A DNA stretch of 64,000 bases from Candidatus Nomurabacteria bacterium. Lineage in GTDB: Bacteria > Patescibacteriota > WWE3 > UBA101185 > UBA10185. Each line of letters starts with the position of its first letter. The stretch's first letter is position 1. Position numbers and translations under genes: made by a program. Of this stretch, positions 22,579 to 61,834 are shown piece after piece. The stretch lies in contig JACKGU010000001.1 of the NCBI GenBank assembly GCA_020631855.1, forward strand, positions 295,601 through 359,600. The letters run 5' to 3'. Below the pieces are notes generated by a model, which saw only the letters and a program-made list of their open reading frames with translations, had not been told where the DNA came from and searched no databases.

Positions 22579-24696
22579 CTATTTGGCTTGATTTTTGTAA
22601 ACATTGATCAAAAACTCTACATGTGCATCAAAACCCTCACCTAGTTGTTCAACACCATATAAAATCTCTTCACGATCAATTTTAGCCGCAAAAGCCCTAT
22701 CTTTAAATTTCTTCTTTACTGACGATACTTTCATGCCGTCGTAACCTTCGGGGCGCATCAATGCGTACGCATATAGAAATCCGGCCATCTCATCCACGGC
22801 AATAAGCGCAGAGGCCAGCCTGGTCTGAGGTTTTACATTGGTTCTCATGTGAGCATGAGCTGCAACTGCATGAATTAAACTCTCAGGATAGTTTCTCTCT
22901 TTAAACCATTCTAATGATTTTGCAGGATGCTCATCAGGGTATTCAAAATAATCAAGGTCATGTAATAAACCTGTGATATACCAGAGTTCGCGATCTTCAT
23001 TGAATTTTTCAGCATATGCTTCAAGACCGCGGGCGATCATAAGAGCATGCTGTATTTGATAGCTGTCCTTGACATGGTCCCGTAAAAGCGCCTCCGCCTC
23101 CTTTCTAGAAGGTAGAAATCCCTCGGAGCTAATGTATAAACTCTCGTTTAAATCAGTTTTACTTAGAGAGTCTTCTACTAGAGGATCGCTCTTGGATAAC
23201 CCGTAGATTTCAGCGTTTGCATCGTCGTAAACATGCTTCAATTGAGGAAATGGAACTCCTTCCCTTGCTGTAACATCCTCTAAAAACCAAAAAACTCTTT
23301 CTGAATGACCATAACCAAATGTCGGCGGCATGCCGTATTCAAGCATTTCAACATAATCAATATCGAGCCACTGCGCTTCCGAATCACCGGAATCTCTCAT
23401 TGACTGCTGTTCCGAAAATCGTTCAAACTGATCCAAGCCACTATTTATTTCCGACCAGCCATTTCCGAGTTCGGAGCCGGCAATAATTGGCTGGAAACGC
23501 TCTGTTATTCTGGTATCTTTTGGGTTCGCCTTTGCTAACGGCGACAAATACTTAGGGTGATTAATTAAAAAGGCAGGCCCCCCAATAGTTCTACGTATTT
23601 CTTTCCAAAGAGCGTCCACTAATCGTGGCCGATTCTCTGTCTCTGCCTTTATTCCGGCTTTTTCGCAAGCTAGCTTTAAATCTTCAATACTTGAATTGTG
23701 TACGTCTACTCCATATCTCTGCTTCATGATGTCAGAGAAATCAATCCTTTCCCACTCTTTTTTGGAGAAATCAACTTCAAAACCCCTAATACTGAACTTC
23801 TTCTTATCTCCGTAAAGAGATTCAATCACGTAATTAAAAAGGTCTTGAATAAAATCCATACCTGATTGCCAATCAGCGTAAGCCCAATAAACCTCCATCG
23901 CCATGTGTTCGGGAAGATGCTCGTCGGATAAACCCTCATTTCTGAATCTTGGGCCTATTTCATAAACTTTTTCATAGCCCCCTCCAATTAATCTTTTCAA
24001 AAAAAGTTCATGGGAAATTCTAAGATAAAGAGTCTCATCGATGGAGTCCATATGAGTCACAAAAGGATTCGCGTCTGCCCCTCCGGGCACTGCTTCTAAA
24101 ACAGGAATATTAATCTCATAGAAACCCCTTTTTTCAAAAAACTCGCGATGAGCAGCCCAAAACTTAGAACGTCTAATGTATCTATCACGAACATCATCAT
24201 TTATCCTTGTATCTAGATATCTTTTACGCATTCTGGTCTCTCTGTCTTTAAGCCCATCGTGCTTGTCGGGCAATGGTCTAAGGGATTTGGCCAATATTCT
24301 TATGCTGTGGGGCTCTATAGACTGCTCGCCGCTATTTGTTATTACTAAAGCTCCCTTGCACTCTATATAATCTCCAATATCTAATAAATCCAGCTCAGAG
24401 TAGGATATTTCACTATTTTTGTGTTCAACTTTTTCAAGATTTTGTTCCTTAATATATACCTGAATTGTGCCTGAAAAATCTTTTATATCAAAAAATGTCA
24501 GCTTTCCATGTCTTCTCAACGACATGATCCAACCGGCTAAAATTACTTCCTTTCCCCCAAGTTTGCCAAAGCTGCTTATAACTTCAGAGATTAGGTGGGT
24601 CCTAAAAGACGTTGCCGGATAAGGATCAACGCCTAGATCTTGAAGATTTTTAAGTTTTTGTAATCTTACATCCCTTAGCTCTTTTAAAGTGGCCAT
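22579..24696 (-). CDS. lysS: Lysyl-tRNA synthetase (class II) fused to a C-terminal HD-domain phosphohydrolase
   Basis: N-terminal OB and class II core, then a ~180-aa HD module (QHAL...LLHDLDY...AAHAH). The start is taken at MATLKEL (24696), behind AGGAAA. Confidence 0.9.
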   Translation of the reverse strand: MATLKELRDVRLQKLKNLQDLGVDPYPATSFRTHLISEVISSFGKLGGKEVILAGWIMSLRRHGKLTFFDIKDFSGTIQVYIKEQNLEKVEHKNSEISYSELDLLDIGDYIECKGALVITNSGEQSIEPHSIRILAKSLRPLPDKHDGLKDRETRMRKRYLDTRINDDVRDRYIRRSKFWAAHREFFEKRGFYEINIPVLEAVPGGADANPFVTHMDSIDETLYLRISHELFLKRLIGGGYEKVYEIGPRFRNEGLSDEHLPEHMAMEVYWAYADWQSGMDFIQDLFNYVIESLYGDKKKFSIRGFEVDFSKKEWERIDFSDIMKQRYGVDVHNSSIEDLKLACEKAGIKAETENRPRLVDALWKEIRRTIGGPAFLINHPKYLSPLAKANPKDTRITERFQPIIAGSELGNGWSEINSGLDQFERFSEQQSMRDSGDSEAQWLDIDYVEMLEYGMPPTFGYGHSERVFWFLEDVTAREGVPFPQLKHVYDDANAEIYGLSKSDPLVEDSLSKTDLNESLYISSEGFLPSRKEAEALLRDHVKDSYQIQHALMIARGLEAYAEKFNEDRELWYITGLLHDLDYFEYPDEHPAKSLEWFKERNYPESLIHAVAAHAHMRTNVKPQTRLASALIAVDEMAGFLYAYALMRPEGYDGMKVSSVKKKFKDRAFAAKIDREEILYGVEQLGEGFDAHVEFLINVYKNQAK

Positions 24697-24730
24697 TATT
24701 TTATTTCCTAAACTGAATACGTACTTCGCA

Positions 24731-24739
24731 ATTATAACA
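24731..24739 (-). promoter_or_regulatory. Extended -10 promoter (TGTTATAAT) of lysS, 34-nt leader with an SD
   Basis: Read on the minus strand. AGGAAA lies about 10 nt before the ATG. Confidence 0.45.
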
Positions 24740-24907
24740 GAAAAGGGGCAGGTACAAAGCACCCAAAAATAGTGCTAAAACATTTTTACGGCCTAAATTT
24801 TTTTATTTGCTTTTATATTGCTAACCCGAACAAAATTCTTTTAGTACATGGCCTAACCTGCTTATACTAGCCACAAACAACAAAGAACTGTAAAATATCT
24901 GCAGAGT

Positions 24908-25873
24908 ATGAAAAAAATAACTGAAGCTACGATCGCTCAAGGCACTAGGGTTTTTGTGAGTACAGATATAGATGTACCTATAGATAATGGGCATATTAGA
25001 AATACTTTTAGACTCGACCGTGGCTTAGAAACTCTTAAGTACATAGTAGATAAAGGAGCAATCCCAGTAATTGGGGGCCATATAAAAAATCCTCAAGGAA
25101 AATACGATCCCCAGCTTAGTACAGCACCTCTTAAAAAGTATTATAATGAAAAATTAGGGGAGGGTTCTTACGAACTATTAGAAAATCTGCGTTTTGACAT
25201 TAGAGAAGATCAGAATGAGGATACCTACGCACAGGAACTGGCAAATAAAACAGAGGTCTTTGTAAACGAGAATTTTGCAACCTCACATCGAACAAATGCT
25301 TCTTTAGTTGCTATTACTAAATACTTACCTTCATTCGCGGGACTTAATTTGAGCAGAGAAATCGAAGCTTTGGATAAAATACTTATCGACTACAAAAAGC
25401 CTTTTACTGCAGTTATTGGCGGAGCGAAAGTTGAAAGCAAGGCACCTGTTATTGATTCGCTTTGCAACATAGCTGACAATATCCTGCTTGGTGGGAAAAT
25501 AGGCTTAAACTATTCTACGGATAATGCTAGGGTGAGCTCTCCGGCCGACTACGCAGACGGTAATCAAGATATCGGCCCGAAAACAATCCTAAACTATACA
25601 GGATACATACTGTCAGCCCAAACACTTTTATGGGCCGGGCCTATGGGAGCTTATGAAAAAGACGAATTCTGTATTGGTACAAATCTAATCGCAGATGCGA
25701 TAGTGGAAGCAACAAAAGGCGGCGCTTATAGCATAATAGGAGGCGGAGATACGATTACAGCTTATAGCAAGAACCACGCATTGGGAGAAGTAAGTTTTGT
25801 TTCAACAGGAGGAGGGGCCATGCTGACATATCTGGCGCATAAGAATATGCCCGGCATTGAGGCTTTAGGATAA
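24908..25873 (+). CDS. pgk: Phosphoglycerate kinase (compact, 321 aa)
   Basis: NENFATSHR, IGGAKVESK, GGGDT, STGGGAML motifs. Confidence 0.92.
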   Translation: MKKITEATIAQGTRVFVSTDIDVPIDNGHIRNTFRLDRGLETLKYIVDKGAIPVIGGHIKNPQGKYDPQLSTAPLKKYYNEKLGEGSYELLENLRFDIREDQNEDTYAQELANKTEVFVNENFATSHRTNASLVAITKYLPSFAGLNLSREIEALDKILIDYKKPFTAVIGGAKVESKAPVIDSLCNIADNILLGGKIGLNYSTDNARVSSPADYADGNQDIGPKTILNYTGYILSAQTLLWAGPMGAYEKDEFCIGTNLIADAIVEATKGGAYSIIGGGDTITAYSKNHALGEVSFVSTGGGAMLTYLAHKNMPGIEALG

Positions 25874-25876
25874 ATT

Positions 25877-26179
25877 ATGGCAAAAAGTTTAAAAGTTCAG
25901 TTTCCGGAACGTTGCATAGGCTGCGAACTGTGCATCATGGAAATACAAAGACAGCTTAAAAAACACGGCCTCGAAGGTTCTCTGATTAGAGTTTTTAAAA
26001 GTGCCAAAGAAGGAAAAGAAATATGCGAGACTCTGGAATACTCAATAGATCTAGACCCGAGCATAAATTCATACGACATTGAACAAATTAGGAAAATTTG
26101 CCCAAAAAGTGTTTTTGTTGTGGCCGACATGACAGAAGAAGAGAACTACGAAGACGCTCTGCTGGAACAGAAAGATTAA
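25877..26179 (+). CDS. Small ferredoxin-like protein (single CxxCxxC...CP cluster motif)
   Basis: FPERCIGCELC plus a distal ICP. Starts 4 nt after the pgk stop and ends 2 nt before the next start. Confidence 0.6.
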   Translation: MAKSLKVQFPERCIGCELCIMEIQRQLKKHGLEGSLIRVFKSAKEGKEICETLEYSIDLDPSINSYDIEQIRKICPKSVFVVADMTEEENYEDALLEQKD

Positions 26180-26181
26180 AT

Positions 26182-27015
26182 ATGCATAAATCAGTCTTAT
26201 TTGTTAATTTAAAAAATAAAACATACGAGGTTAAAAAATTTGACGAACTCGCAAAATACATAGGAGGAGTTGCTGTTGGATTTAAACTTCTTCTTGATAA
26301 TATAGAGCACGATCCAATTATATTTTCTATCGGACCTTTGAACGGCGTGTTTCCTTTCGCATCAAAAACTTCTATCGTTCTGCATAACAATGGCGTAGTC
26401 GAAGACTTATATATCGGGGGTTCCCTAAGCTCCAGAATGGCCTTTTCCGGGGTTGACTCCATAGTATTTATAGAATCCGCAGAAGAGCCCACATACGTTG
26501 AAATAACGAATGAGGAAGTGTTCTTTAAACCAATAACAACTGATATAGATTCTTTAGGATTACCGGGGAAAAGATCAGTTTTAAAACCAATTAAAAATAA
26601 ATACTTTTTAGATGATTATTTTTTAACTCCGGAGTTATTTTTTGAAGAAAAGCTTGCAAAGAAAAATGTAGGAGGAATAGTGTTAACAGGAACAAAAACA
26701 CGTGAAATAAAAAATCCTGAAAAATATAAGGAACTTTTACACGAAATATTAGGTAAAAAGTCTTTAATGGAAATAGATGAGGGAGATAGCCCCTCTTGCA
26801 CATTTTGTCCAATGGGGTGCTCAAAGTCTCGTACCGGAGAAATTGGAGGAAACATATTGGTACACAGCATGGTGGGATGCAAGCTTAGCCAAAAAATATA
26901 CAGCGACGTGGGAACAATTTTTTCTTGCTTGAGTGTGTTGGGCTATTCCTACACACACGAAGATATTGAAGACCTGCCTCTTCTGGTAAAAGAGGTACTG
27001 GAAAAATTAAATTAA
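26182..27015 (+). CDS. Truncated aldehyde:ferredoxin oxidoreductase-like protein (AOR N-domain plus CxxCxxxC)
   Basis: MHKSVLFVNLKNKTYEVKKF..YIGGVAVGFKLL..IFSIGPLNG..SSRMAFSGVDSIVFIE resembles the AOR N-terminal domain. CTFCPMGC matches the AOR 4Fe-4S motif. Only 277 aa. Confidence 0.6.
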   Translation: MHKSVLFVNLKNKTYEVKKFDELAKYIGGVAVGFKLLLDNIEHDPIIFSIGPLNGVFPFASKTSIVLHNNGVVEDLYIGGSLSSRMAFSGVDSIVFIESAEEPTYVEITNEEVFFKPITTDIDSLGLPGKRSVLKPIKNKYFLDDYFLTPELFFEEKLAKKNVGGIVLTGTKTREIKNPEKYKELLHEILGKKSLMEIDEGDSPSCTFCPMGCSKSRTGEIGGNILVHSMVGCKLSQKIYSDVGTIFSCLSVLGYSYTHEDIEDLPLLVKEVLEKLN

Positions 27016-27671
27016 TGAAATATTTAGTAGCAAACTGGAAATCTAATATGACAGTCTCCGAGGTTATTGTCTGGCTAAAAGCTTGGGATAAACTAATAAA
27101 AAGCGCAGAGAGTAATGATGCGGTAAGAGTTTTAGTAGCCCCTTGTTTTATACATCTTCCATTATTTACCGGTCTGGAAAATATTTATTCTTGCGGGCAG
27201 GATGTCTCGGAGAACAGCGTAGGGCCTTATACCGGATACGTGAATGCTACACAGCTAAGGGAATTCGCTGATTACAGCATAGTCGGGCACAGCGAAAGAA
27301 ATGAAGACTCTGAAACAGTTGTCAAAAAGATTAATCAGTGTAGAAATAACGGAATTGAGGCCATTGCTTGTTTCACTCACACTGAAAATGCAACAGAGTA
27401 TTCAAAATTCACAAAGATCTTAGCTTGGGAGGACCCTGAAAATATATCAAAACAAGGAAAGTATGCAGAATTAAGGTATGGTGAAATAAATCACTCTATT
27501 GAAAAAATTTACTCTAATATTGAACCCGATACTGTGTTATTATACGGAGGCTCTGTTAACTCGAATAATATTAGCGAATTAACTAGAATTAAGAGTATAT
27601 CGGGGTTTTTAGTAGGAAACGCAAGTCTGGACGTGGCTCACTTTTATAAGCTATACTGCTCCATGATCTAG
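27015..27671 (+). CDS. tpiA: Triosephosphate isomerase (compact, 218 aa)
   Basis: ANWKSN, GHSERN, GGSV motifs. The start overlaps the previous stop (TAATG). Confidence 0.9.
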   Translation: MKYLVANWKSNMTVSEVIVWLKAWDKLIKSAESNDAVRVLVAPCFIHLPLFTGLENIYSCGQDVSENSVGPYTGYVNATQLREFADYSIVGHSERNEDSETVVKKINQCRNNGIEAIACFTHTENATEYSKFTKILAWEDPENISKQGKYAELRYGEINHSIEKIYSNIEPDTVLLYGGSVNSNNISELTRIKSISGFLVGNASLDVAHFYKLYCSMI

Positions 27672-31246: not shown

Positions 31247-31828
31247 TCAATTAATATAGTAAATAGCAAATGTAACTATAAGAGTATCCTTTCCGGAATT
31301 GGGATTGGAATCTACATCCGCCCGTGCACTAACCACTGCGTATACTCTTTTTGAGACACTCAGGTCCTGCAGAAATTTAGGCAAAGCAGAAATATCTCCT
31401 GTTAACTTAGCAGAATAGAGCTCAGAGTATTCAACATAATCCGACTTCGTCACACTGGAATCATTGGAGGATGTCCCCTTGACTTCATCAAGCGACAGTC
31501 CGTTAATCCTTGCTATCTGTGATAGTTCAAAAATCATACCATCGTAGTCCTTTTCAACGGGAACTCCATTCATAATAATTTCAGTTTTTAAATTTCTTAC
31601 TAAATAAGGCTCGAGCAGAGCTACACGATTTATATTGTTTTTTATAATAGTTCCTTGCTCCGAAAACTCTTTAACGAGATCTTTCTTATATTTATAGGCG
31701 GAATAACCCCTAACGGCACCGAAATATCCCACAACAACTACATTAAAAGCTAAAAAGCACAGAAACAAAACAAAATTTCTGTAAGGTCGGCTTTGTATTT
31801 CTCGATCATAATAATTATTCAACTTCAT
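31247..31828 (-). CDS. Bitopic membrane protein, PilO-like topology
   Basis: Short cytoplasmic N-terminus, one TM, coiled segment, then an alpha/beta C-domain. 4-nt overlap with the upstream gene. The assignment is tentative. Confidence 0.4.
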   Translation of the reverse strand: MKLNNYYDREIQSRPYRNFVLFLCFLAFNVVVVGYFGAVRGYSAYKYKKDLVKEFSEQGTIIKNNINRVALLEPYLVRNLKTEIIMNGVPVEKDYDGMIFELSQIARINGLSLDEVKGTSSNDSSVTKSDYVEYSELYSAKLTGDISALPKFLQDLSVSKRVYAVVSARADVDSNPNSGKDTLIVTFAIYYIN

Positions 31829-32466
31829 TTGTATGTAACCTCTATCGAAATATCATACGAGCCCCCGCGATTTAAGCCTGCGTACAATAAACTGATTGAT
31901 TCTATATCTTTGTTTGAAAAAAGATTAGACATATAGATAGAAGCGTTTATCGGCTCGGAAACAACAATGTTTAGGTTTGCTTTATCAGTATCAAATGACG
32001 TGCTAGAGTAAAAACCCTTCGGCACATCCGTATTCATTACTTCTGCGTGTCTGCTGATCAGACTTCTTTTTGACTCTATAGATTTGTAAGTAGCTATACG
32101 ATCATTTACTTTAGTAACATCGGCAATAATATCTTTTCTGCTGCTGAAAGTATCTGACAAGTCTTCGACTTCTATTACAAGCTGCTCAAGCTGTCGGTTA
32201 ACTGAAAAGTTAAGCAGAAGGATAATCAAATATATTACCTGAATAAAAATGATTAAATAAACTATTATCCTCGGGGTAGAGTCGGGAATACTAATACTTT
32301 TTTCTTGAAATAAGTTTGGGGTATAAATAGGCTCAGTTGCCTCTAGCGGCTCATTTAGTGGCTGGTTTAGTCTTTGCTTTAGATTTTGAAGCTTTTTCTT
32401 TGCTGGCAGTAGAAACTTTAGTTTCTTTTTCAGCTGTATTTTTTTCTTTTTCTGGACCTTGGGCAT
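31825..32466 (-). CDS. Bitopic membrane protein, PilN-like topology, Lys-rich N-terminus
   Basis: One TM (IIVYLIIFIQVIYLIILLL), coiled coil, C-domain. The ATG at 32466 lies inside the rpsT tail. The assignment is tentative. Confidence 0.4.
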   Translation of the reverse strand: MPKVQKKKKIQLKKKLKFLLPAKKKLQNLKQRLNQPLNEPLEATEPIYTPNLFQEKSISIPDSTPRIIVYLIIFIQVIYLIILLLNFSVNRQLEQLVIEVEDLSDTFSSRKDIIADVTKVNDRIATYKSIESKRSLISRHAEVMNTDVPKGFYSSTSFDTDKANLNIVVSEPINASIYMSNLFSNKDIESISLLYAGLNRGGSYDISIEVTYK

Positions 32467-34730: not shown

Positions 34731-36542
34731 GTGAACCATACAGCCAATATTAGAAATTTTAGTATTATTGCCCACATTGATCACGGCAAGTCTACCTTGG
34801 CGGATCGCTTGCTGGATATAACCGGCACTATAGAAAAAAGACAACTCAAAGATCAAACGTTAGACAGCATGGAGCTTGAAAGAGAAAAGGGTATAACAAT
34901 AAAGCTAAAGGCCGTTCGCATGAACTATACCCTCGATTCAATTGAATATCAGCTTAATCTCATTGATACGCCCGGACATGTGGACTTTTCCTATGAAGTT
35001 TCACGCTCTCTGGCTGCTTGTGAGGGCGCTGTTTTAGTTGTAGATGCTACACAAGGAATTCAGGCACAAACCGTTTCAAATGTTTATAAAGCTATAGATG
35101 CTAACCTAACAATCATTCCGGTCATAAATAAGGTAGATTTGGCAGGAAGTAATGTGGAAAAAACGGCCCAAGATTTAGTGGATACTTTTGGTTTTAAACA
35201 CGATGAAATTTTGCAAATCTCGGCAAAAACCGGCCTCGGGATTGAACGGCTACTTTCCGAAATTATTAAGAGAGTTCCTGCACCAAAAGATACCTATGAC
35301 AAGAATTTTCGAGGATTAATATTTGATACATATTACGATGAGTTCTTGGGCGTCATCGCGCTTATTAAGGTCGAGGACGGAAAAATTGAACTCCAGGATG
35401 TGAAAAACCATAGAAAAATATACTTAATGGCAACCAAAGCAGAGTCTGATCCTGAAAGTATAGGAATAATGGTTCCCCACCGCAAAGAAGTGGGATCTTT
35501 ATCTGCGGGGGAGGTTGGCTTCATCTCGACAGGCGTCAAAGATATAAAAACGGTCCGAGTAGGCGACACGGTTACTTTTAAAGATATCGCCTCCGCAACA
35601 CAGCAACTGGAGGGATACAAAGAAGTTAAACCCTTCGTATTCATGTCCATCTACCCAATTGAAAACGATAAATACCCTGAATTAAAAGACGCTTTAGAGA
35701 AGCTGTCTTTATCAGATTCTGCCCTTCAATACACCGCCGAAAGTAACTCCGCTCTAGGATTCGGATATCGTTGCGGTTTTTTAGGACTTCTTCACGCTGA
35801 CATAGTGCAGGAAAGGCTTGAAAGAGAATACAATCTGGAACTGATATCGACTACCCCTAGCGTAGAATATACCGCAACACTAACCACAGGGGAAACCGTA
35901 AAAGTGAAAAACCCATCAGAAATGCCCGAGCCCACTAGAATACAGAGTGTGCAAGAGCCGTGGATTATTTTACATATTTTTTCGCCGGCAACATACACAG
36001 GAGGGATAATTACCCTATGTGAAAGTCGGAGGGGCATTATGAGAAAAATGGAATACCCTACACAAGACACGATTATGTTTGAATACGAACTGCCTCTATC
36101 TGAACTTGTAAATAATTTTTTCGATGAACTCAAAACAATATCTTCCGGATATGCATCAATTGATTACGACTTTCTGGAATACAGAAATGTAAAAGTAATA
36201 AAAATGGACATTCTGGTACACGGAGCTGAGGTTGAGCCTTTGGCACAAATAGTTCTAAAAGATAACGCCCAAGCAATCGGCAAAAAAATAATAAACAGAC
36301 TAAAAGATGTAATACCACGACAACAGTTTGCAGTCGCTGTTCAAGCCGCCATAGGCGGAAAAATCATAGCTCGCGAGACCATACCGGCCATGAGAAAAGA
36401 TGTTCTATCGGGCATATATGGAGGCCACAGAGAAAGAAAAGATAAGTTATTAGAAAGACAAAAAAAAGGTAAAAAAAGAATGAAGAGACTAGGAAAAGTT
36501 GATATTCCGCAAGAAGCCTTTAGACAAGTTCTAAGTAATTGA
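34731..36542 (+). CDS. lepA: Elongation factor 4 (LepA)
   Basis: [25 protein letters not shown], and a conserved LepA C-terminal domain. Confidence 0.97.
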   Translation: MNHTANIRNFSIIAHIDHGKSTLADRLLDITGTIEKRQLKDQTLDSMELEREKGITIKLKAVRMNYTLDSIEYQLNLIDTPGHVDFSYEVSRSLAACEGAVLVVDATQGIQAQTVSNVYKAIDANLTIIPVINKVDLAGSNVEKTAQDLVDTFGFKHDEILQISAKTGLGIERLLSEIIKRVPAPKDTYDKNFRGLIFDTYYDEFLGVIALIKVEDGKIELQDVKNHRKIYLMATKAESDPESIGIMVPHRKEVGSLSAGEVGFISTGVKDIKTVRVGDTVTFKDIASATQQLEGYKEVKPFVFMSIYPIENDKYPELKDALEKLSLSDSALQYTAESNSALGFGYRCGFLGLLHADIVQERLEREYNLELISTTPSVEYTATLTTGETVKVKNPSEMPEPTRIQSVQEPWIILHIFSPATYTGGIITLCESRRGIMRKMEYPTQDTIMFEYELPLSELVNNFFDELKTISSGYASIDYDFLEYRNVKVIKMDILVHGAEVEPLAQIVLKDNAQAIGKKIINRLKDVIPRQQFAVAVQAAIGGKIIARETIPAMRKDVLSGIYGGHRERKDKLLERQKKGKKRMKRLGKVDIPQEAFRQVLSN

Positions 36543-37445
36543 CGAGATATAGGACTTCAATTTTTTCAGCTTAATTACATCTTCTAGCCTTCTGGTGCCG
36601 GCCTTTATCTCCATATAATATTCAAAAATATTAGTCACATCGTTGAGAAACTTCTTTGTTGAAACAACATACCCGGCTATTAGAACGAGCTCGGAGATTT
36701 GTTTAGTACCCATAAATACATCGCGCACAACAAGTAGCAAAATACTAAGTTTAAAAAAAGACACTAATGATTGAAGGCTGAACCAGGAAATAAAACGAAA
36801 AGACTGAACATCACCATACTTACCCCAAACTTTCTCAGCATAACTTTTTACGCGATCATTAACCAAAAGCCGTGAGTAATATTTCTCTCTAACCTGATCG
36901 AATTTTTCGTATAAAACCTCATAGTGTCTTGAAAGAAAATAAGAAGAGATAATATAGAAAGATATCGCAGAAACCTCTAAATAAAAGACTCGTACATCAA
37001 TCAACAATAAGATGAAAGGGATTAAAATAAACTCAACAATTCCCTGAAAACCATCGTCAATCATATGAGTTACAAACCGTCTAATGGCATGAGTTAAATT
37101 ACGAACTGCCTGCACTACCTCCATACGGTCTTTTTCTTTCGGAGAAAACGTTATTAAAAAGTCTGTTTGAACTTCAACAAGCTTTTTTTCTGTCGTAAAA
37201 GAAATCAAAGATTTTGATCCGACACGAACAAGGTGCTCAATAATTTCTGTAACTAGAATAAGGGCAAGGGGCAAAACGATTTCGCTAAGGGACATTCTTT
37301 GCTCTATACGATAAATGCCTAATGAAAATAGAAAAGTTACTAAAAGAGGCCCTAAGGTGCAAATAAGACGCAACAAAATATACAGGTTATACTCTCGCGT
37401 GAAAAAAAATTTAATTAAGTAGTTTCTTATAAGACGGGCAGTCAT
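36531..37445 (-). CDS. Polytopic membrane protein resembling an ABC-exporter transmembrane domain without an ATPase domain
   Basis: 304 aa, about 5-6 TM helices with long intracellular helical linkers. No Walker motifs. Weak by-eye call. Confidence 0.35.
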   Translation of the reverse strand: MTARLIRNYLIKFFFTREYNLYILLRLICTLGPLLVTFLFSLGIYRIEQRMSLSEIVLPLALILVTEIIEHLVRVGSKSLISFTTEKKLVEVQTDFLITFSPKEKDRMEVVQAVRNLTHAIRRFVTHMIDDGFQGIVEFILIPFILLLIDVRVFYLEVSAISFYIISSYFLSRHYEVLYEKFDQVREKYYSRLLVNDRVKSYAEKVWGKYGDVQSFRFISWFSLQSLVSFFKLSILLLVVRDVFMGTKQISELVLIAGYVVSTKKFLNDVTNIFEYYMEIKAGTRRLEDVIKLKKLKSYISSIT

Positions 37446-41797: not shown

Positions 41798-42469
41798 ATG
41801 ACAACTATTTATCTAGTTAGACACGGAGAAAACCTAGCAAACATTACCAGAGAACTTTCTTATAAACACATAGACTATGAGCTGACGAACAAAGGACATT
41901 TTCAAGCAGCTCAAACTGCTACAGCCTTTGATAATATAACCATAGATGCAATCTACTCTTCTCCTCTTAAAAGAGCGATGCAAACGGCAGAATATATAGC
42001 TAAAAGAAAGAAACTAATACCAAAAATTTTAGAAAACTTCAGAGAAATAAATATGGGAAAGGTCGAAGGGATGAAGCCAAATGAAGAAAGTTGGAAACAA
42101 TATTTTTTAATCACACATAAATGGTATATGGGCGAAGAAGACATAAGCTTTCCTGAAGGAGAAAACTACTCTCAGCTAGTTAACCGCTTTGCAACGGGCC
42201 TACTAGAAGCAATCAAAAAAACTCTGCACGGTAATATTGCAGTTATTGGGCATGCAGGCATCTTTGCAGCCGGAGTGATCCATCTTTGTAAAATAGAAAA
42301 TAAAAAAGAGTTTTCTGCTATACAAAACCATAACTGCTCAATAAGCGAGCTGTCGGTCACACAAAACAATCAAAACCTATCTTACTCCTTAGTCAAGTGG
42401 GCCGACAGCTCGCACTTAACGGGCAGCGCCGCGAAACTAGTTAAAGGCATGCCCGAATCGTCATCCTGA
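41798..42469 (+). CDS. Histidine phosphatase family protein (phosphoglycerate mutase-like)
   Basis: LVRHGEN (RHG motif), SSPLKRAMQTAE, downstream GHAG. Confidence 0.85.
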   Translation: MTTIYLVRHGENLANITRELSYKHIDYELTNKGHFQAAQTATAFDNITIDAIYSSPLKRAMQTAEYIAKRKKLIPKILENFREINMGKVEGMKPNEESWKQYFLITHKWYMGEEDISFPEGENYSQLVNRFATGLLEAIKKTLHGNIAVIGHAGIFAAGVIHLCKIENKKEFSAIQNHNCSISELSVTQNNQNLSYSLVKWADSSHLTGSAAKLVKGMPESSS

Positions 42470-55475: not shown

Positions 55476-56285
55476 ATGGACCTTAATGCTGCTCAAAACA
55501 CCAATAATCAACAGCTAAACTCGCACCCAGACGATGCTCAGAAAAATAAGCTCAATACGATTTTACCGGGCACCAATTCTCAAAGCTTGGGAGGGAATTC
55601 TCCGATTACAAGCATTGCAGGGGTGTCGGACGACGATCTTCAAAACAAAAGCATAAATCTAGACACGCAAGATACCCTAAGTACAGAAAATAAGACCAAC
55701 ACAAACAAAGAAATAGAAAAAGCAAAAGGCTACAAAGATGACATAAGTAAAATTGTATATGACTTTCTAGAAAAAAACGGAGAGAGCCTAGACAGTATGG
55801 AAGAGGTTCCATCAGACATAGGACCCTCAATAAATAACCATCCCGCAACACTTGGCCCCGGAAAAGGAAGAAGGGAGATTTTTACAAGCCCTGTAATAGG
55901 AACTATTAGTGAAAATGCGCCTATAAGCCATCGCGAAACCTTCCAAACTGAAATAGACCCGGCTTCTCAAACAGAGCAGATTTCTGTAGCTAAGGCAGAA
56001 ACATCCGCTCAAGAAGAAAAAAATTCTTCGGAAATTCAAAGTATACAGGAAGTATTACAAAACCCACAACCAGATTCCGAGAATTACGATAAAATATCAA
56101 CATTGATTCCAGAAACCGAACCTATACCGCAGCCGGATAGTGATTTGAACGTTGTTGACCTGAGAACAGGCCATGAAAATTTGCAACAAATTGCCGATCC
56201 AATAGATAAATTAACTGAAGAAGCAGATGAGAAAGAGGCAGACTTTATAACAAAAGTGGAGGATACACATGCTGTCGCTAACTGA
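55476..56285 (+). CDS. Acidic, low-complexity (likely disordered) hypothetical protein
   Basis: 269 aa, rich in D/E/Q/N/S/T/P, no TM. The 3' end overlaps the next gene by 17 nt. Confidence 0.6.
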   Translation: MDLNAAQNTNNQQLNSHPDDAQKNKLNTILPGTNSQSLGGNSPITSIAGVSDDDLQNKSINLDTQDTLSTENKTNTNKEIEKAKGYKDDISKIVYDFLEKNGESLDSMEEVPSDIGPSINNHPATLGPGKGRREIFTSPVIGTISENAPISHRETFQTEIDPASQTEQISVAKAETSAQEEKNSSEIQSIQEVLQNPQPDSENYDKISTLIPETEPIPQPDSDLNVVDLRTGHENLQQIADPIDKLTEEADEKEADFITKVEDTHAVAN

Positions 56286-58677
56286 TATAGCCTACAACAT
56301 CTTCTGGATACTCTTTTACATTATTTTCTTGGCGAGCACTATATTAGGAATATTTTATATGCTTGCCAAAACCAAAAGACAAAGATTTCTAAAAAACAAA
56401 CAATATAATTTGACCTTCTTCCATGTTAAAGTACCACAACAAAACGAATTCGAAATAGATGCGGCAGAACAACTTTTTGCAGGCGTGGCAGGTTTGAGAA
56501 GATCAACTCTGGAAGGACTTTTGAAAGGCCAATACCAAGTCTCATTTGAGATCTTGGCCAAACACGGGCAAATAGGCTTCTATATAGTAATGCCTGACGA
56601 ATTGGTGGAATTTATGGAAAAGCAGATTAACGGGGCCTATCCTACTGCCGAAATAGACATTATTGATCCAAACGAAGTTTGGGACAGAGGGCACTTCACA
56701 GCTATCGCAGAGCTAAAACTTAAAGGACCGGCATTCTACCCTATTAGAACGATAAAAGAGAAAGAAGGTGACCCGCTAAGCACTCTCACCTCGGTACTAA
56801 CAAAGCTGAAAAAAGACGAGGTTATAGCTATTCAGCTTGTAACCTCACCTGCCAGTAACTGGTGGAGGGCTGCAGGAAATGCTTTTATCGGACATGTCAA
56901 ACACGGCGGAAATCCCGAAAAGAAAAGTGCCCCAGACAACTCCATGCTGGAAGGTGTTGAGAAAAAAATAGGAAAAAGCGGGCTTGATGTCGTTGTGAGA
57001 GTTGTCTCAATAGCTGAAACCAAACACATAGCGGAAAGCCACATAATGAACGTTGTAACCGCCTTCGAGCAGTATACTGATGTTAAATACAATAAATTCA
57101 AAAAAAGCAGAGTTTTATTTAAAACAAAATTTGTAAATGATTTCATTTACAGAAACATAACGCCTCTAAATATATACATCCCGATTTTATATAACACACT
57201 TTATAGCAGAACCTCGGTACTGAATATTACTGAGATGGCAAACATCTTCCACATGCCTAACAAAAACATACAAACTCCAAACATTCTGTGGCTAATTGCA
57301 AGAAAGGCGTCAGCCCCGTCAAACATACCTCACGAAGGCCTGTATTTAGGAATCAATCAGTTTAGAGGCTCACAGAGAGGTATCTATATGAAAGAGAAAG
57401 ATCGTACACGACATATGTATATTATAGGGCAAACGGGCACAGGTAAATCCGAGTTTATGAAGACACTGGTACTACAAGATATTGCCGCGGGAAAAGGTTT
57501 GGCTCTAATTGATCCTCACGGAAGCGATATAGACGATATCTTAGAAAAAATCCCGGAAAGCAGAATAGACGACGTAATACTTTTTGATGTTTCAGATATA
57601 GAACGCCCGATGGGATTAAACATGCTTGAAGCTGAAACCGAGGAAGAGAAACACATGATTATTAACTCATTTATTGCCTTGTTATATAAGCTATACGACC
57701 CAAACAGACAAGGTATCATGGGCCCTCAACTTGAAAGGGCTATAAGAAACGTTATGCTAACCGCAATGGTAGATAAAGAATCAACCATGGTAGATGTTCT
57801 AAGGCTATTGATCGACAACAAATATGTAGAAACTTTTATACCAAGAATTCAAGATCCACTAGTTAAACGGTACTGGACTGATGAAATGGCCAACACAAGC
57901 GACTACCATAAAGGCGAGAAAATGGGCTATTTTGTATCAAAATTTGATAGGTTCGTAACAGAGAGGACCATGAGAAATATACTAGGGCAACCAAAAAGTG
58001 CATTTAATTTTAACAAGATTATGGCAGAAAAAAAGATACTGCTCGTAGACCTGTCTAAAGGTAAGATTGGAGAAGAGAATTCAAACTTTATCGGCCTGCT
58101 TCTGGTTCCACGAATACTTGCTGCAGCTCTATCCAGAGCTTCCCTTTTAGGTAAAGAGGATTTCCCTGATTTTTATCTTTATGTAGATGAGTTTCAAAAC
58201 TTTGCCACACCTGACTTTGCTACTATACTGTCGGAAGCCAGAAAATATAAACTAAATTTGGTTGTCGCGCACCAATTTGTGGCACAGTTAACCGACGACA
58301 TTAAAGAAGCCGTGTTTGGTAACGTAGGAACAACTTGTGTTTACAGGGTTGGTCCGGACGATGCCGAATATCTTGAAAAACAGTTTGACCCTTATTTCAC
58401 AAAGTCAGATTTATTAAACTTGCCAATTGGAAACGCTTACATGAGGCTGCTTGTCGACGGCCACCCAACAACGCCTTTTTCCCTTGCTGTAGATTGGGAC
58501 ATGGTTAATAAAACTAAAAAAGATCCTTCTGTGGCAAAGAGAATAAGAGAAAACTCAAGCATGAAATACGGAACACCAGTAAATGAGGTTGAGGAATACA
58601 TAAATAAAAGGGCAGGGCTGAATAAACAAGGCGAGGATAGCCAACTACTTGAAAAAAGAAGTTTAATACCTTTTTAA
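56269..58677 (+). CDS. Membrane-anchored VirD4/TraD-like (type IV coupling protein-like) P-loop ATPase
   Basis: One N-terminal TM, a ~340-aa domain of unknown function, then GQTGTGKSEF (Walker A), IDPHGS, LYVDEFQNF (Walker B), ARKYKLNLVVAHQFVAQL. Confidence 0.8.
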   Translation: MLSLTDIAYNIFWILFYIIFLASTILGIFYMLAKTKRQRFLKNKQYNLTFFHVKVPQQNEFEIDAAEQLFAGVAGLRRSTLEGLLKGQYQVSFEILAKHGQIGFYIVMPDELVEFMEKQINGAYPTAEIDIIDPNEVWDRGHFTAIAELKLKGPAFYPIRTIKEKEGDPLSTLTSVLTKLKKDEVIAIQLVTSPASNWWRAAGNAFIGHVKHGGNPEKKSAPDNSMLEGVEKKIGKSGLDVVVRVVSIAETKHIAESHIMNVVTAFEQYTDVKYNKFKKSRVLFKTKFVNDFIYRNITPLNIYIPILYNTLYSRTSVLNITEMANIFHMPNKNIQTPNILWLIARKASAPSNIPHEGLYLGINQFRGSQRGIYMKEKDRTRHMYIIGQTGTGKSEFMKTLVLQDIAAGKGLALIDPHGSDIDDILEKIPESRIDDVILFDVSDIERPMGLNMLEAETEEEKHMIINSFIALLYKLYDPNRQGIMGPQLERAIRNVMLTAMVDKESTMVDVLRLLIDNKYVETFIPRIQDPLVKRYWTDEMANTSDYHKGEKMGYFVSKFDRFVTERTMRNILGQPKSAFNFNKIMAEKKILLVDLSKGKIGEENSNFIGLLLVPRILAAALSRASLLGKEDFPDFYLYVDEFQNFATPDFATILSEARKYKLNLVVAHQFVAQLTDDIKEAVFGNVGTTCVYRVGPDDAEYLEKQFDPYFTKSDLLNLPIGNAYMRLLVDGHPTTPFSLAVDWDMVNKTKKDPSVAKRIRENSSMKYGTPVNEVEEYINKRAGLNKQGEDSQLLEKRSLIPF

Positions 58678-58687
58678 GAAAGACGCT

Positions 58688-60565
58688 ATGGTAGAAACAG
58701 CAACCGCCGCAAATGACGCTTTAACAGCATTAAAGGGAAGGAGCGAAACAAAAGTTTCGCCTCTTGAAGAATTTTGGACAAATATAAATGCGCTTACTGC
58801 GGCTTCGCGACAACTGCTGACTAAAATAGAAACCAGCCCCCAGAGCGGACTGAATCAACGCAGAGCCGCACAGCTAGCTAGACAGGCTTTGGCTAGCTAT
58901 GAGATGACGACTAGCCTGACAGAAAATCCCACTAATAGAGAGGAAATTAATGCCCTTTCCAGGTTAGGCGCTGCGACAAACATCGACCCAACAAATCTAT
59001 ACAGAGAGACAATATTACTACAGCCGGAAGTACACTCGTATGAATATTCGGTCAAGCTGTTATTCTCCCACATAGTGTCTATGACCACTGAGGACAGAAG
59101 CAACACCACAAAAAACTTAGCATTGGTTTTAGCCGGGAATTGCTTAGACGGGAGTAAGGTTGATGTAAGAAAAATTCAAAACGAGCTCAGAGAATTAAAT
59201 TTTCCGAACCACCACTTATCAGAAGCAGCAGAGGCCATCGCTGCTATAATCCGGCATACGCCTTACAATCTAACAGATCATCAAGAAAAATTGGGGGTAA
59301 CAGGATACCCGGAAGTCTTGGCTAAAGCTTATAAGAGACTCTACGATCTAGCAACCAAACTTGATCCGGATACACCGCCTACAAAAGCGGAAGAAAGGTC
59401 ACAGCACCAACCCTATGCCAATTGGGAAGCCAGGGCCAAAGAAAGAGAATCGATACACTACAACAGTAATCCTAGAGAACACAAAATATTTTCACGTAAA
59501 GGAGAGATTTTGACTGCCAAGGGTTCGGAGAATAAAACAGCCCAAGTCTTAATTCCAACTGCCATACTTACCAGAACCGTACCTTTGGCGGACTTTGCAG
59601 GCAATGACAGGGCTTTCAATAAAGGATACGTAAAACTACAGCAGGTATTTACCTGCACAACATTTCAAGAAGTCGAAGCTACCCTTGAAATGCTAAACGC
59701 AGCATCTATTGCAGAAGAAGAAAAAACAGCACAGGTACCCATATATGTTCCTAAAACCGTGGTTCAAAATGGAAAAACAACAATTGAATATGAGATAACC
59801 TACATGGAGATGCCGATTGGAACCTATAATAGCTGGCGTAAAGCTTTAATGGAGGCTCGCAAATCCTACCTTAGAGCAGGATTTTCTATTCAAAACCAAG
59901 ATATAACTGCTGGAGTACGCTTAGCAACAGAGCAAGAGAATGCCTATGCAGAACAGACAATGTTGAATAGATATCAAGAGCTTTTGTCTGGACCTAGCCA
60001 TATCAAAGATTCTCTAGACGCATGGATGAGTCAAAGTCATTCAAGGGACAGATTTTACATTAAAGAATTGATGCAAAATACAATGGAACTAGTAAATGAG
60101 TTGACTGAAGAGCTTAATTTGACCCGAAACCCTCGCAATATAACATTAGAGGCTATGAAAACTCTTTATGAAGAAGGGCATGAGCAGCACCCACTGACGA
60201 TGGAAAAAGAAATAACACAGATGTTCGACAACAGAATGGCCGAGCGCTCTAACTATTATGTTGCAATGAAGGTAGCTTTGACAACTCTTGAAAATGTAAA
60301 TGCTTTACCGCCGCCAAGAGATCGCAAAGAAGCAAAAGAACAGATTAGAATGATTATAAATGTTCAAACACAAATAAAACAAATAATGCTTTTCTTGGCA
60401 CTTCAAGAAAAGGGCGTCTCCGAGAGCCGTGCCTCACAAGTCGCGCTGGAAAACTTCCCGGAACACTCAGTGATTAAAGCTCAAGTACCTTATAGGGCTA
60501 GAAATAGTCAAGCCAGAAGGGTTGCAGGAAAGAGACAAGCTGTTAGCAACCAAGGCTCTAGTTGA
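58688..60565 (+). CDS. Hypothetical 625-aa soluble protein (no family recognised)
   Basis: Long ORF starting 10 nt after the ATPase gene. Predicted mostly helical, no TM or signal peptide, no motif I can name. Confidence 0.6.
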   Translation: MVETATAANDALTALKGRSETKVSPLEEFWTNINALTAASRQLLTKIETSPQSGLNQRRAAQLARQALASYEMTTSLTENPTNREEINALSRLGAATNIDPTNLYRETILLQPEVHSYEYSVKLLFSHIVSMTTEDRSNTTKNLALVLAGNCLDGSKVDVRKIQNELRELNFPNHHLSEAAEAIAAIIRHTPYNLTDHQEKLGVTGYPEVLAKAYKRLYDLATKLDPDTPPTKAEERSQHQPYANWEARAKERESIHYNSNPREHKIFSRKGEILTAKGSENKTAQVLIPTAILTRTVPLADFAGNDRAFNKGYVKLQQVFTCTTFQEVEATLEMLNAASIAEEEKTAQVPIYVPKTVVQNGKTTIEYEITYMEMPIGTYNSWRKALMEARKSYLRAGFSIQNQDITAGVRLATEQENAYAEQTMLNRYQELLSGPSHIKDSLDAWMSQSHSRDRFYIKELMQNTMELVNELTEELNLTRNPRNITLEAMKTLYEEGHEQHPLTMEKEITQMFDNRMAERSNYYVAMKVALTTLENVNALPPPRDRKEAKEQIRMIINVQTQIKQIMLFLALQEKGVSESRASQVALENFPEHSVIKAQVPYRARNSQARRVAGKRQAVSNQGSS

Positions 60566-60615
60566 AAAATATCGAGGGCCTGTTTTTCAAATATACTACA
60601 AAAGCCCATTTATAG

Positions 60616-60621
60616 TATAAT
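60616..60621 (+). promoter_or_regulatory. -10 box TATAAT 7 nt from the ATG at 60629
   Basis: Read directly. Weak -35 and no SD. Confidence 0.35.
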
Positions 60622-60628
60622 CAAGTAA

Positions 60629-61834
60629 ATGTTTAAACTGCCATTTAAAATAAATTTCAATAAAAAATCAAAAACGGATACTTTTTTAACAATAGACATA
60701 GGATCAAGCACAGTCAAAACACTAGCTTTTTATAATGACAGCGAAAGCAGATTAAAAGTAATCGGGCTGGGGAAGGAATTTTTACCCGAGGGTGCGGTAC
60801 GAGCCGGATATATAACTGATTTAAAAAGTGTCATAGAAGCAGTGGACGAAACAATTTATCAGGCCCTTGCTAATACGGAACACAGAATTACAGATGCGAT
60901 AATAGGAATATCCGAAAACCTGTGCTATTCGCAAGTTACAACCGGCCGGCTAAACAGAACTACGCCGGGAGAACTGGTTACAGAGAAAGAGCTGGATAAT
61001 TTGAAATACAAAATAATTGATGCTGCGTACAACACGGCCCTAGATGATTTTGTCTATAAAACCGGCGATCTTTCAACAGAGCTTATTCATATAAGCTCTA
61101 TTCCGGCCCATACAAAACTTGATTCAAAGATTGTTGACGACCCAACCGACTTGCCGGGAGCAAAAGTTGAGCTGGCAATTTACAATGCCTATTCCCCCGA
61201 ATATCATACAAAGCAACTGCAAAAAATTGCTGACACGCTAAAACTTTCAGTTTTAGCTATGGTTCCCAACATGTTCTCGTTAGGGGAAGCCCTAAAAAAA
61301 CTCACAAAGGACAATGAGTTGGATTGTATCATTTTAGATATCGGGGGAGAAACAACAGATGTAGGAATTATGTTTGGAGGGGGCCTTATAACTACAAAAA
61401 GCTTACCTATAGGAGGAAGGCACTATACAGAACAGCTATCTTTACAGAGCGGCCTTACTTGGGCAGAATCTGAAAAAAAGAAGAATCAGTACTATTTCGG
61501 ACAAACAGCAGATACAGAAACATCTTTCATCGAAACAGTAATGACTGAAACAACCGACCTGTGGCTCAGCGGGCTGGAAACCCTGTTTAATGAATTTAAT
61601 GGGGTCAGGACCTTTGCATCTGATATATTTGTAGTTGGGGGAGGAAGCTTGCTACCCGATATAATGGCAGCTCTAGAGTCCAGGCCATGGACAAAATCCA
61701 TACCTTTTAGAGAGCCGCCAAGAATAAAACGGGTCAGCATTTCTGAGCTGGATTTTGCTAGAGATACAACCGGCAAACTAAATGAATTGGATTATATTCA
61801 AGCCCTGTCTTTAGGTTTGATGGGAGAATATTAA
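60629..61834 (+). CDS. Actin-fold ATPase of the FtsA/PilM type
   Basis: LTIDIGSSTVKTLAF (phosphate 1), ILDIGGETTDVGI (phosphate 2), VVGGGSLLP (adenosine). No adjacent ftsZ. Confidence 0.7.
   Translation: MFKLPFKINFNKKSKTDTFLTIDIGSSTVKTLAFYNDSESRLKVIGLGKEFLPEGAVRAGYITDLKSVIEAVDETIYQALANTEHRITDAIIGISENLCYSQVTTGRLNRTTPGELVTEKELDNLKYKIIDAAYNTALDDFVYKTGDLSTELIHISSIPAHTKLDSKIVDDPTDLPGAKVELAIYNAYSPEYHTKQLQKIADTLKLSVLAMVPNMFSLGEALKKLTKDNELDCIILDIGGETTDVGIMFGGGLITTKSLPIGGRHYTEQLSLQSGLTWAESEKKKNQYYFGQTADTETSFIETVMTETTDLWLSGLETLFNEFNGVRTFASDIFVVGGGSLLPDIMAALESRPWTKSIPFREPPRIKRVSISELDFARDTTGKLNELDYIQALSLGLMGEY

Follow-up and report, generated by a model that had tools for sequence, protein, structure and literature searches.

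The DNA stretch analysed here (the window) is 64,000 nucleotides from the genome of a Candidatus Nomurabacteria bacterium, an uncultivated organism of WWE3 type (assembly GCA_020631855.1, contig JACKGU010000001.1) and carries a run of four tightly packed genes on its forward strand. The first, pgk (24908-25873, +), encodes a 321-residue phosphoglycerate kinase (PGK; Pfam PGK, 6.9e-77) and the last, tpiA (27015-27671, +), a 218-residue triose-phosphate isomerase (TIM; Pfam TIM, 4e-37). Between them lie fdx (25877-26179, +), the gene of a 100-residue ferredoxin-like protein, and the gene of a 277-residue protein (26182-27015, +), here named mini-AOR, which is a derivative of the large subunit of the aldehyde:ferredoxin oxidoreductase (AOR) and tungsten oxidoreductase (WOR) family that lacks the pyranopterin domains. 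The intergenic gaps are 3, 2 and -1 nt, the ATG of tpiA overlapping the TAA of mini-AOR. An earlier note on this DNA, made from the letters alone, had given the four-gene packing and the open reading frame (ORF) coordinates exactly, and the peptide strings quoted there are all present. The proposal made there, that the pair may be a minimal Fe-S redox module with a link to triose-phosphate metabolism, stays the best reading. In the version developed below from sequence, the two proteins would be a degenerate Class II tungsten oxidoreductase that has become a redox sensor or an electron relay of two clusters, expressed together with the genes of lower glycolysis, and the chance that this is right is put at about even.

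The N-terminal part of mini-AOR was predicted to resemble the N-terminal domain of AORs, and the profile searches agree. The Pfam domain AFOR_N is found in the protein at 6.6e-20 and 72 bits against a cut-off of 29.8, and AFOR_C gives no match at E<=1. Searched against solved structures, the family profile matched AOR/WOR enzymes alone, with the Pyrococcus furiosus AOR (1AOR) at 7.8e-12. Profile-profile alignment with hhalign pairs residues 2-193 with residues 3-232 of 26 full-length AORs at a probability of 100. The AlphaFold model has a pLDDT of 78.7 and a pTM of 0.82, and its sole poor part is the Cys-rich segment at residues 197-241. Foldseek matches this model to AOR, FOR, WOR5, BamB and related chains with E values of 6e-15 to 3e-11. 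Given these profile, alignment and model matches, nearly the whole of mini-AOR is a sub-structure of the AOR large subunit. Domain 1 of that subunit occupies residues 1 to ~195 (26182-26766, +), as placed by hhalign, with a pLDDT mostly of 85-98.

Domain 1 is followed by the motif CTFCPMGC, that is C206-x2-C209-x3-C213 (26797-26820, +). In the HMMER alignment it pairs with residues 286-298 of 1AOR, KPCYACPIGC, where the profile reads 'PsCsgCPmGC', and it also aligns with the CxxCPxGC of the full-length relatives. The motif was thus correctly taken for the one that binds the AOR [4Fe-4S] cluster. The accompanying picture of a truncated AOR ending about 45 residues after the motif needs two changes. 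The pterin-binding C-terminal domains are indeed absent, but the protein extends 64 residues beyond CTFCPMGC and has lost two internal segments besides its C-terminal end.

The losses were mapped in an alignment (A5) of mini-AOR, its closest full-length relatives and conventional AORs. Domain 1 is retained except for an internal gap of ~20 residues. Absent are ~50 residues from the beginning of domain 2, ~190 residues between CxxCxxxC and the distal cysteine, and ~60 residues at the C-terminus. The distal segment that is retained, 'SLvaC..a.kIYsD....F..L..LGy.ythE.le', includes C233 (26878-26880, +), which aligns with the cysteine in 'SL..C.FAr..Y' of full-length AORs and is the equivalent of their distal fourth cluster ligand. 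The same two blocks are found by tblastn with the 538-residue relative P0172, whose residues 8-215 match window positions 26194-26751 and residues 435-482 positions 26836-26970 (E 1e-5) in the same frame; its residues 216-434, the pterin core, have no match in any frame of the 64-kb window. A Gly-rich invariant loop, GEIGGN..HS (residues 219-229), stands in place of the pterin core. These alignments show that mini-AOR has undergone two in-frame deletions inside the protein as well as a truncation at the C-terminus, and is not a plain truncation. A frameshifted full-length AOR was also considered and rejected, as tblastn with seven full-length relatives gave two in-frame segments and left the pterin core unmatched.

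In sequence terms, C206, C209, C213 and C233 are a complete putative [4Fe-4S] ligand set. A fifth conserved cysteine, C249 (26926-26928, +), is absent from the longer and the very short ("micro") forms of the AOR-like protein described below. The invariant polar residues, cysteines apart, are K62, E74, D75, R85, E220, N224, H228, H259, E260 and D261. Thus, of the features that define AOR/WOR enzymes, domain 1 and the cluster ligand set are present, and the pterin domains and catalytic residues are absent. Members of the family that oxidise aldehydes conserve four second-shell residues, Thr243, Glu313, Tyr427 and His448 in the numbering of the P. furiosus enzyme (PMC12096430, PMC13328260). All four fall within the stretches deleted from mini-AOR, the parts kept being those equivalent to 1AOR up to residue ~224, residues 286-298 and the distal Cys segment. 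Because the pterin regions and the four second-shell residues are deleted, mini-AOR cannot bind tungsto-bispyranopterin or oxidise glyceraldehyde 3-phosphate (GAP) or other aldehydes by the AOR mechanism. Since these enzyme-defining features fail, it is classed here as a derivative of the family and not as a functional member. In the databases it goes by 'AFOR N-terminal domain-containing protein', by 'hypothetical protein' or, for many members in IMG, by 'aldehyde:ferredoxin oxidoreductase'; the last is wrong as a functional label.

The deletions bear directly on the idea that the locus encodes an active GAP or aldehyde:ferredoxin oxidoreductase that takes the place of glyceraldehyde-3-phosphate dehydrogenase (GAPDH), like the archaeal GAPOR or the bacterial GOR. 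Such an enzyme would lead one to expect homology to the AOR family, a neighbouring ferredoxin, a glycolytic operon and a window devoid of gapA, all of which are seen, and the GOR of Caldicellulosiruptor bescii, a two-subunit WOR with a glycolytic role, offers a model for it. It is nevertheless highly improbable, given the loss of the AFOR_C domains and the second-shell residues and the presence of a canonical gapA upstream in most relatives. The specific link to archaeal GAPOR drawn in the earlier note is not supported either: the NCBIfam model GAPOR_Arch (NF040818) has no match to mini-AOR at E<=1, and the full-length relatives tested score no higher than 33.6 bits where the cut-off is 1300, the best long form of WWE3 type (P0175) reaching 29.5 bits. 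A search for a stand-alone AFOR_C protein with the deleted core of P0172 returned one partial protein, a weak test made by word-index search. Among the 56 window ORFs scanned, none had a Pfam match to pterin- or tungstate-related families.

The partner protein encoded by fdx is more diverged. Fer4 of Pfam scores 16 bits in it against a cut-off of 21.1, and a hidden Markov model search of the PDB gave no significant match. Its ligand pattern is clear, with CxxCxxC (C13, C16 and C19; 25913-25933, +) read directly off the sequence and C75-P76 (26099-26104, +) further on. In 81 sequences C13, C16 and C19 are 100% conserved, C75 99% and P76 98%; C50 is not conserved. The CxxCxxC...CP pattern is common to all lineages examined, and positional homologues pass the cut-offs of Fer4-type families. 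In one relative locus (L093), of a divergent lineage, the gene in the fdx position encodes a canonical 77-residue 2x[4Fe-4S] ferredoxin, CIGCKLCVLAC...CSGCGKCVQACP, which matches Fer4 at 38.7 bits and Fer4_7 at 39.2 bits. In another (L089) the positional homologue matches the single-cluster family Fer4_15 end to end, at 23.3 bits against a cut-off of 22.4.

Aligned with the dicluster ferredoxin of L093, the window protein keeps the three cysteines that belong to the first motif; of the otherwise lost second motif the terminal Cys-Pro remains, C75 being the predicted fourth cluster ligand. In dicluster ferredoxins, the first three cysteines of one motif and the terminal cysteine of the other ligate the same cluster. 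One ligand set is therefore kept and that of the second cluster has been lost, so that the 100-residue protein would be a ferredoxin in which a single predicted [4Fe-4S] cluster is left of an original two. This bears out the ferredoxin-like character proposed for it earlier, and cysteine conservation together with the positional homologues points to a reduced partner of the WorS type. The protein has an invariant motif of its own, GLEGSLIRV, and in the loci examined it is found only beside an AOR-like gene. Its AlphaFold2 model is of low confidence (pLDDT 56.8) and has the order beta-alpha-beta-beta-alpha-beta; the Foldseek matches of this model, to PII, CutA and S6, are non-significant (E>=0.015) and reflect the generic order only.

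Conservation of mini-AOR was followed in a species-representative genome collection with one genome per species. Relatives are encoded in 91 stretches, among them the complete genome RAAC2_WWE3_1, and the stretches are labelled WWE3, Patescibacteria or, in one series of metagenome-assembled genomes, 'uncultured Candidatus Saccharibacteria'. Searching 5.8 billion proteins yielded 312 homologues. The best 120 of the 312 are 274-296 residues long and share 49-61% identity with the window protein; the one exception is a 206-residue fragment that is 99% identical. In an exhaustive search of representatives, ~40 clusters (50% identity) of 270-300 residues precede the first full-length AORs. Across 87 sequences, conservation is 99% at each of the cysteines C206, C209, C213 and C233 and 94% at C249; an alignment of 33 sequences has 46 invariant columns. 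In the same loci the median identity to the window protein is 50.5% for mini-AOR, 47.9% for PGK, 39.0% for TIM and 53.1% for LytR. The ratio of nonsynonymous to synonymous substitution rates (dN/dS) is ~0.31 for mini-AOR, compared with 0.20 for pgk and 0.46 for tpi; these values are rough only, as dS is ~1.3 and near saturation.

From these comparisons mini-AOR is seen to be a functional gene under purifying selection in at least 80 genomes and fixed in the WWE3 lineage. A dead gene or pseudogene was thus ruled out by the constant length of near 280 residues, the conserved cysteines, conservation at the level of PGK and dN/dS of ~0.3. A remnant of an AOR that has no function and is still decaying might be read from the three size classes of the protein and the loss of cysteines in some lineages, which suggest ongoing reduction. 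That such a remnant would keep an intact ORF of constant length in at least 80 species-level genomes and 46 invariant columns, at this dN/dS and with no frameshift relic, is barely credible. The decayed remnant that had been offered as an alternative is thus set aside: no frameshift restores an AOR, and the window has no coding potential for AFOR_C.

The gene order around the pair is gap-pgk-fdx-mini-tpi in 49 fetched loci, pgk-fdx-mini-tpi in 20 and gap-fdx-mini-tpi in 10. The four-gene arrangement is thus conserved in relatives, the fdx-mini pair being kept mostly with both pgk and tpi, and lytR-holA-sortase follows downstream. The genes are closely spaced, with a median gap of -1 nt from pgk to fdx (15 nt or less in 58/62), -12.5 nt from fdx to mini-AOR (74/78) and -1 nt from mini-AOR to tpi (74/77). 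From gap to pgk the median is 41 nt, and 1 of 27 gaps is 15 nt or less. In one relative (L090, 176-4656), genes for the large and small subunits of a NiFe hydrogenase, an FAD/NAD-binding Fe-S protein and a polyferredoxin adjoin pgk-mini-tpi on the opposite strand. WWE3 bacteria have PFOR and hydrogenase, and in a complete WWE3 genome 'a ferredoxin oxidoreductase-like protein' was named among the electron carriers (Kantor et al. 2013).

A canonical GAPDH gene lies within a few kb upstream in 64 of the fetched relative loci. The window has none; the absence of gapA from this cluster had been noticed before and extends to all 64 kb. Because most relatives have a canonical gapA upstream, this absence is a local feature of the present genome and not of the system, and the idea that the pair stands in for a missing gapA is not supported. 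The slot between pgk and tpi is also not, as had been supposed, the usual place of GAP-oxidising enzymes, since in gap-pgk-tpi operons gap precedes pgk.

In 53 of the 64 gap-bearing loci gap is itself immediately preceded by a thioredoxin gene, and the order reads trx-gap-pgk-fdx-mini-tpi (for example L004, 7351-8706). This adjacency is the starting point for the view that the pair is a ferredoxin-dependent thiol/disulfide reductase for thioredoxin or for the catalytic cysteine of GAPDH, by analogy a functional counterpart of ferredoxin:thioredoxin reductase. The 94% conservation of the fifth cysteine, C249, would suit such a role, as would P0139, a mini-AOR of 292 residues in L093 that has Gly for the third cluster Cys and still has the C249 equivalent. 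However, mini-AOR has no CPC...CPC...CHC motifs and a single cysteine left over once the four ligands are counted, the 64-kb window contains no trx and no gap, and the trx-gap adjacency may be inherited synteny. A reductase of this kind is quite unlikely.

The AOR-like gene of this slot occurs in three size classes in WWE3, of 538-554, 270-292 and 198-217 residues (L085, 1135-2751; L089, 6001-7653; L091, 8001-9653; L086, 8001-8648). The long forms P0172, P0174, P0175, P0177, P0181 and P0189 are the nearest full-length relatives of mini-AOR (E 1e-33 to 1e-20). They match AFOR_N and, weakly, AFOR_C, and their hosts are WWE3 or Patescibacteria. They hold the same slot, following a 78-100-residue CxxCxxC...CP protein and preceding lytR-holA-sortase. 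The micro forms of 198-217 residues, from which half of domain 1 has been removed, sit after pgk and a 79-residue ferredoxin in another WWE3 genome. The 'RHSH' of conventional AORs is 'STTEE' or 'SQNLE' in the long forms (A5); because of this replacement, their pterin site may already be degenerate.

A further variant is the layout of L093 (1473-2574), where P0139 stands beside the dicluster ferredoxin. The conventional 604-residue AOR P0178, one of the next-best matches to mini-AOR, has an upstream overlapping gene for a 164-residue polyferredoxin, the WorS+WorL (Class II) layout of P. furiosus ASOR/WOR5 and C. bescii GOR. The simplest history of the locus is one of stepwise cofactor loss. 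The ancestor would have been a WOR of two subunits, the small one an Fe-S protein and the large one catalytic, encoded inside a glycolytic gene cluster, and it would then have lost the cofactor part in steps.

How might the reduced pair work? In AORs the cluster passes electrons between the pterin and ferredoxin, and mini-AOR keeps the part that holds the cluster. In the proposed mechanism, the fdx protein and mini-AOR would bind each other as WorS and WorL do, the ferredoxin docking on the side of the AOR remnant where the cluster is kept. The two clusters would form a short electron relay. This relay would either join the ferredoxin pool to a partner or sense the ferredoxin/O2 redox state for the enzymes of lower glycolysis.

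Several observations weigh against such a relay or sensor. First, the Cys-rich residues 197-241 of mini-AOR are modelled at pLDDT <50 and the model of the ferredoxin is poor. Second, strong conservation extends over ~195 residues of domain 1, which a mere electron relay could do without. Third, the co-evolution of the two proteins in a mirror-tree comparison is weak, with a partial r of 0.30, the highest of the pairs, compared with 0.04-0.24 for the others. Fourth, CxxCxxxC is lost in the long forms P0174, P0177 and P0181 and in the micro form P0216, and the gene is kept without its cluster cysteines; at least in these lineages, the conserved function is independent of the cluster. Fifth, no tpi adjoins the gene in the long-form lineages. 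Sixth, the whole neighbourhood (lytR, holA, sortase, pilO, murJ, lepA, hrcA) is syntenic in WWE3, so that membership of the operon may reflect descent and not a functional link with glycolysis.

In a rival reading the AOR remnant would be a non-redox structural or regulatory subunit that binds PGK, TIM or GAPDH as a scaffold or regulator, its cluster being structural or an oxygen-labile switch. Domain 1 is the best conserved and best modelled part of the protein, the slot still holds variants that have lost the cluster cysteines, and stop and start codons lie close to or overlap those of pgk and tpiA. The cysteines speak differently. The four of the cluster are 99% conserved in the main clade, and the partner ferredoxin keeps its cluster ligands in all lineages examined, including those in which the AOR-like protein has lost CxxCxxxC. 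A subunit of this type is unlikely, though it is the most probable of the alternatives.

The invariant loop allows a more radical proposal, in which GEIGGN..HS and the cluster together form a novel catalytic site that acts on a phosphorylated triose or a related metabolite. The many invariant polar residues other than cysteines and the conserved linkage to pgk and tpi fit this. All four irons appear to be Cys-ligated, however, which leaves no open iron site, and the loop region is poorly modelled. There is also no known precedent for such an enzyme, and mini-AOR does not resemble the known Fe-S (de)hydratases or radical enzymes. A new cluster-based enzyme is accordingly rated very unlikely. 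Taken more broadly, excision of the cofactor domains might have given rise to a new ferredoxin-linked protein acting directly on lower glycolysis, either as a pterin-free triose-phosphate enzyme or as a ferredoxin-driven switch or reductase for thioredoxin, GAPDH, PGK or TIM. This is doubtful. If it were true, the small glycolytic enzyme set of WWE3 would include an unrecognised Fe-S component.

The pair is of interest for several reasons. AOR/WOR enzymes are defined by tungsto-pyranopterin, and here a phylum-wide, strongly selected derivative keeps domain 1, the [4Fe-4S] site and a cut-down ferredoxin. It also shows that AOR domain 1, together with the predicted cluster, is functional by itself. 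The longer and shorter forms in one slot offer a natural series of the dismantling of a cofactor enzyme in bacteria with reduced genomes. The pair sits inside gap-pgk-tpi, and few other metabolic operons are universally conserved in these bacteria. Finally, the two proteins make an expressible target for a connection between ferredoxin redox state and glycolysis in organisms not yet grown alone.

The flanking glycolytic genes have features of their own. PGK matches the 379-position Pfam profile in three stretches, and as its relatives are also 319-325 residues long, the shortened form seems typical of the lineage. TIM, only 218 residues long, is the least conserved protein of the cluster, with a median identity of 39% to its relatives; the TIM of Katanobacteria groups with archaeal TIM (Jaffe et al. 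2020). A weak promoter-like site lies upstream of pgk (24868-24896, +; 9/12 consensus matches), and the scan found no terminator-like site on the + strand before 29900; sites of these kinds were no commoner in the region than in shuffled sequence.

Elsewhere in the window, a lysyl-tRNA synthetase (22579-24762, -) has a C-terminal HD extension (Pfam HD, residues 570-651, E 3e-8), and the same fusion is annotated in one relative (L003). A histidine-phosphatase family protein (41798-42469, +; His_Phos_1, 9e-41) is probably a phosphoglycerate mutase, a glycolytic enzyme unlinked to the pgk-tpiA cluster. A cluster at 55476-63364 (+) includes a HerA/TraG-like ATPase (56269-58677) and an FtsA/PilM-like protein (60629-61834), together with three large ORFs that have no Pfam match (55476-56285, 58688-60565 and 61835-63364). 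Pfam matches are also absent from ORFs of 193, 213 and 304 residues at 31247-32466 (-) and 36531-37445 (-), the first two of which match PilO-like genes of relatives by position.

No published description of mini-AOR was found in the literature on WWE3/Katanobacteria, Patescibacteria or the candidate phyla radiation combined with AOR, AFOR_N or molybdenum cofactor. The 2026 classification of WOR enzymes requires both IPR013983 and IPR001203 and does not mention Patescibacteria; as both domains are required, mini-AOR falls outside it. Relative to P. furiosus AOR (1AOR) and formaldehyde oxidoreductase (1B25), the protein lacks domains 2 and 3, the pterin/tungsten site and the equivalents of Thr243, Glu313, Tyr427 and His448. 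P. furiosus WOR4, which has a 3Fe-4S cluster and no detected activity, is a precedent for drift of an AOR-family protein away from aldehyde oxidation. The change of a cluster-ligand Cys to Gly is common to WOR4, where it is linked to the 3Fe-4S cluster, and P0139. Unlike mini-AOR, WOR4 is of full length and contains tungsten. The CPC...CPC...CHC motif of ferredoxin:thioredoxin reductase is absent from both the mini-AOR sequence and the family alignment. On the ferredoxin side, the single-cluster proteins of the Fer4_15/Fer4_13 type, themselves derived from 2x[4Fe-4S] ferredoxins, have the CxxCxxC...CP ligand set in common with the fdx product, whereas the latter is too diverged for any Pfam cut-off and has its own GLEGSLIRV motif.

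Two further tungsten systems serve for comparison with the pair. Archaeal GAPOR is, like mini-AOR, an AOR-family protein linked to glycolysis and ferredoxin. It is, however, a monomeric 63-kDa tungsten enzyme that replaces GAPDH, and most mini-AOR relatives have GAPDH. The other is Class II WOR, composed of WorL and WorS and represented by C. bescii GOR, a two-subunit WOR that serves as a glycolytic GAP oxidoreductase, and by P. furiosus ASOR/WOR5 (PDB 6X6U). There the gene of the small Fe-S subunit adjoins that of the large subunit, as fdx adjoins mini-AOR. WorS has four [4Fe-4S] clusters (IPR017896), compared with one ligand set in the window ferredoxin and a two-cluster version in L093. WorL is ~600-650 residues long and carries tungsto-bispyranopterin, whereas mini-AOR has 277 residues with that part excised. 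The two-subunit bacterial WorS+WorL type, which includes C. bescii GOR, is a better comparator for the pair than archaeal GAPOR.

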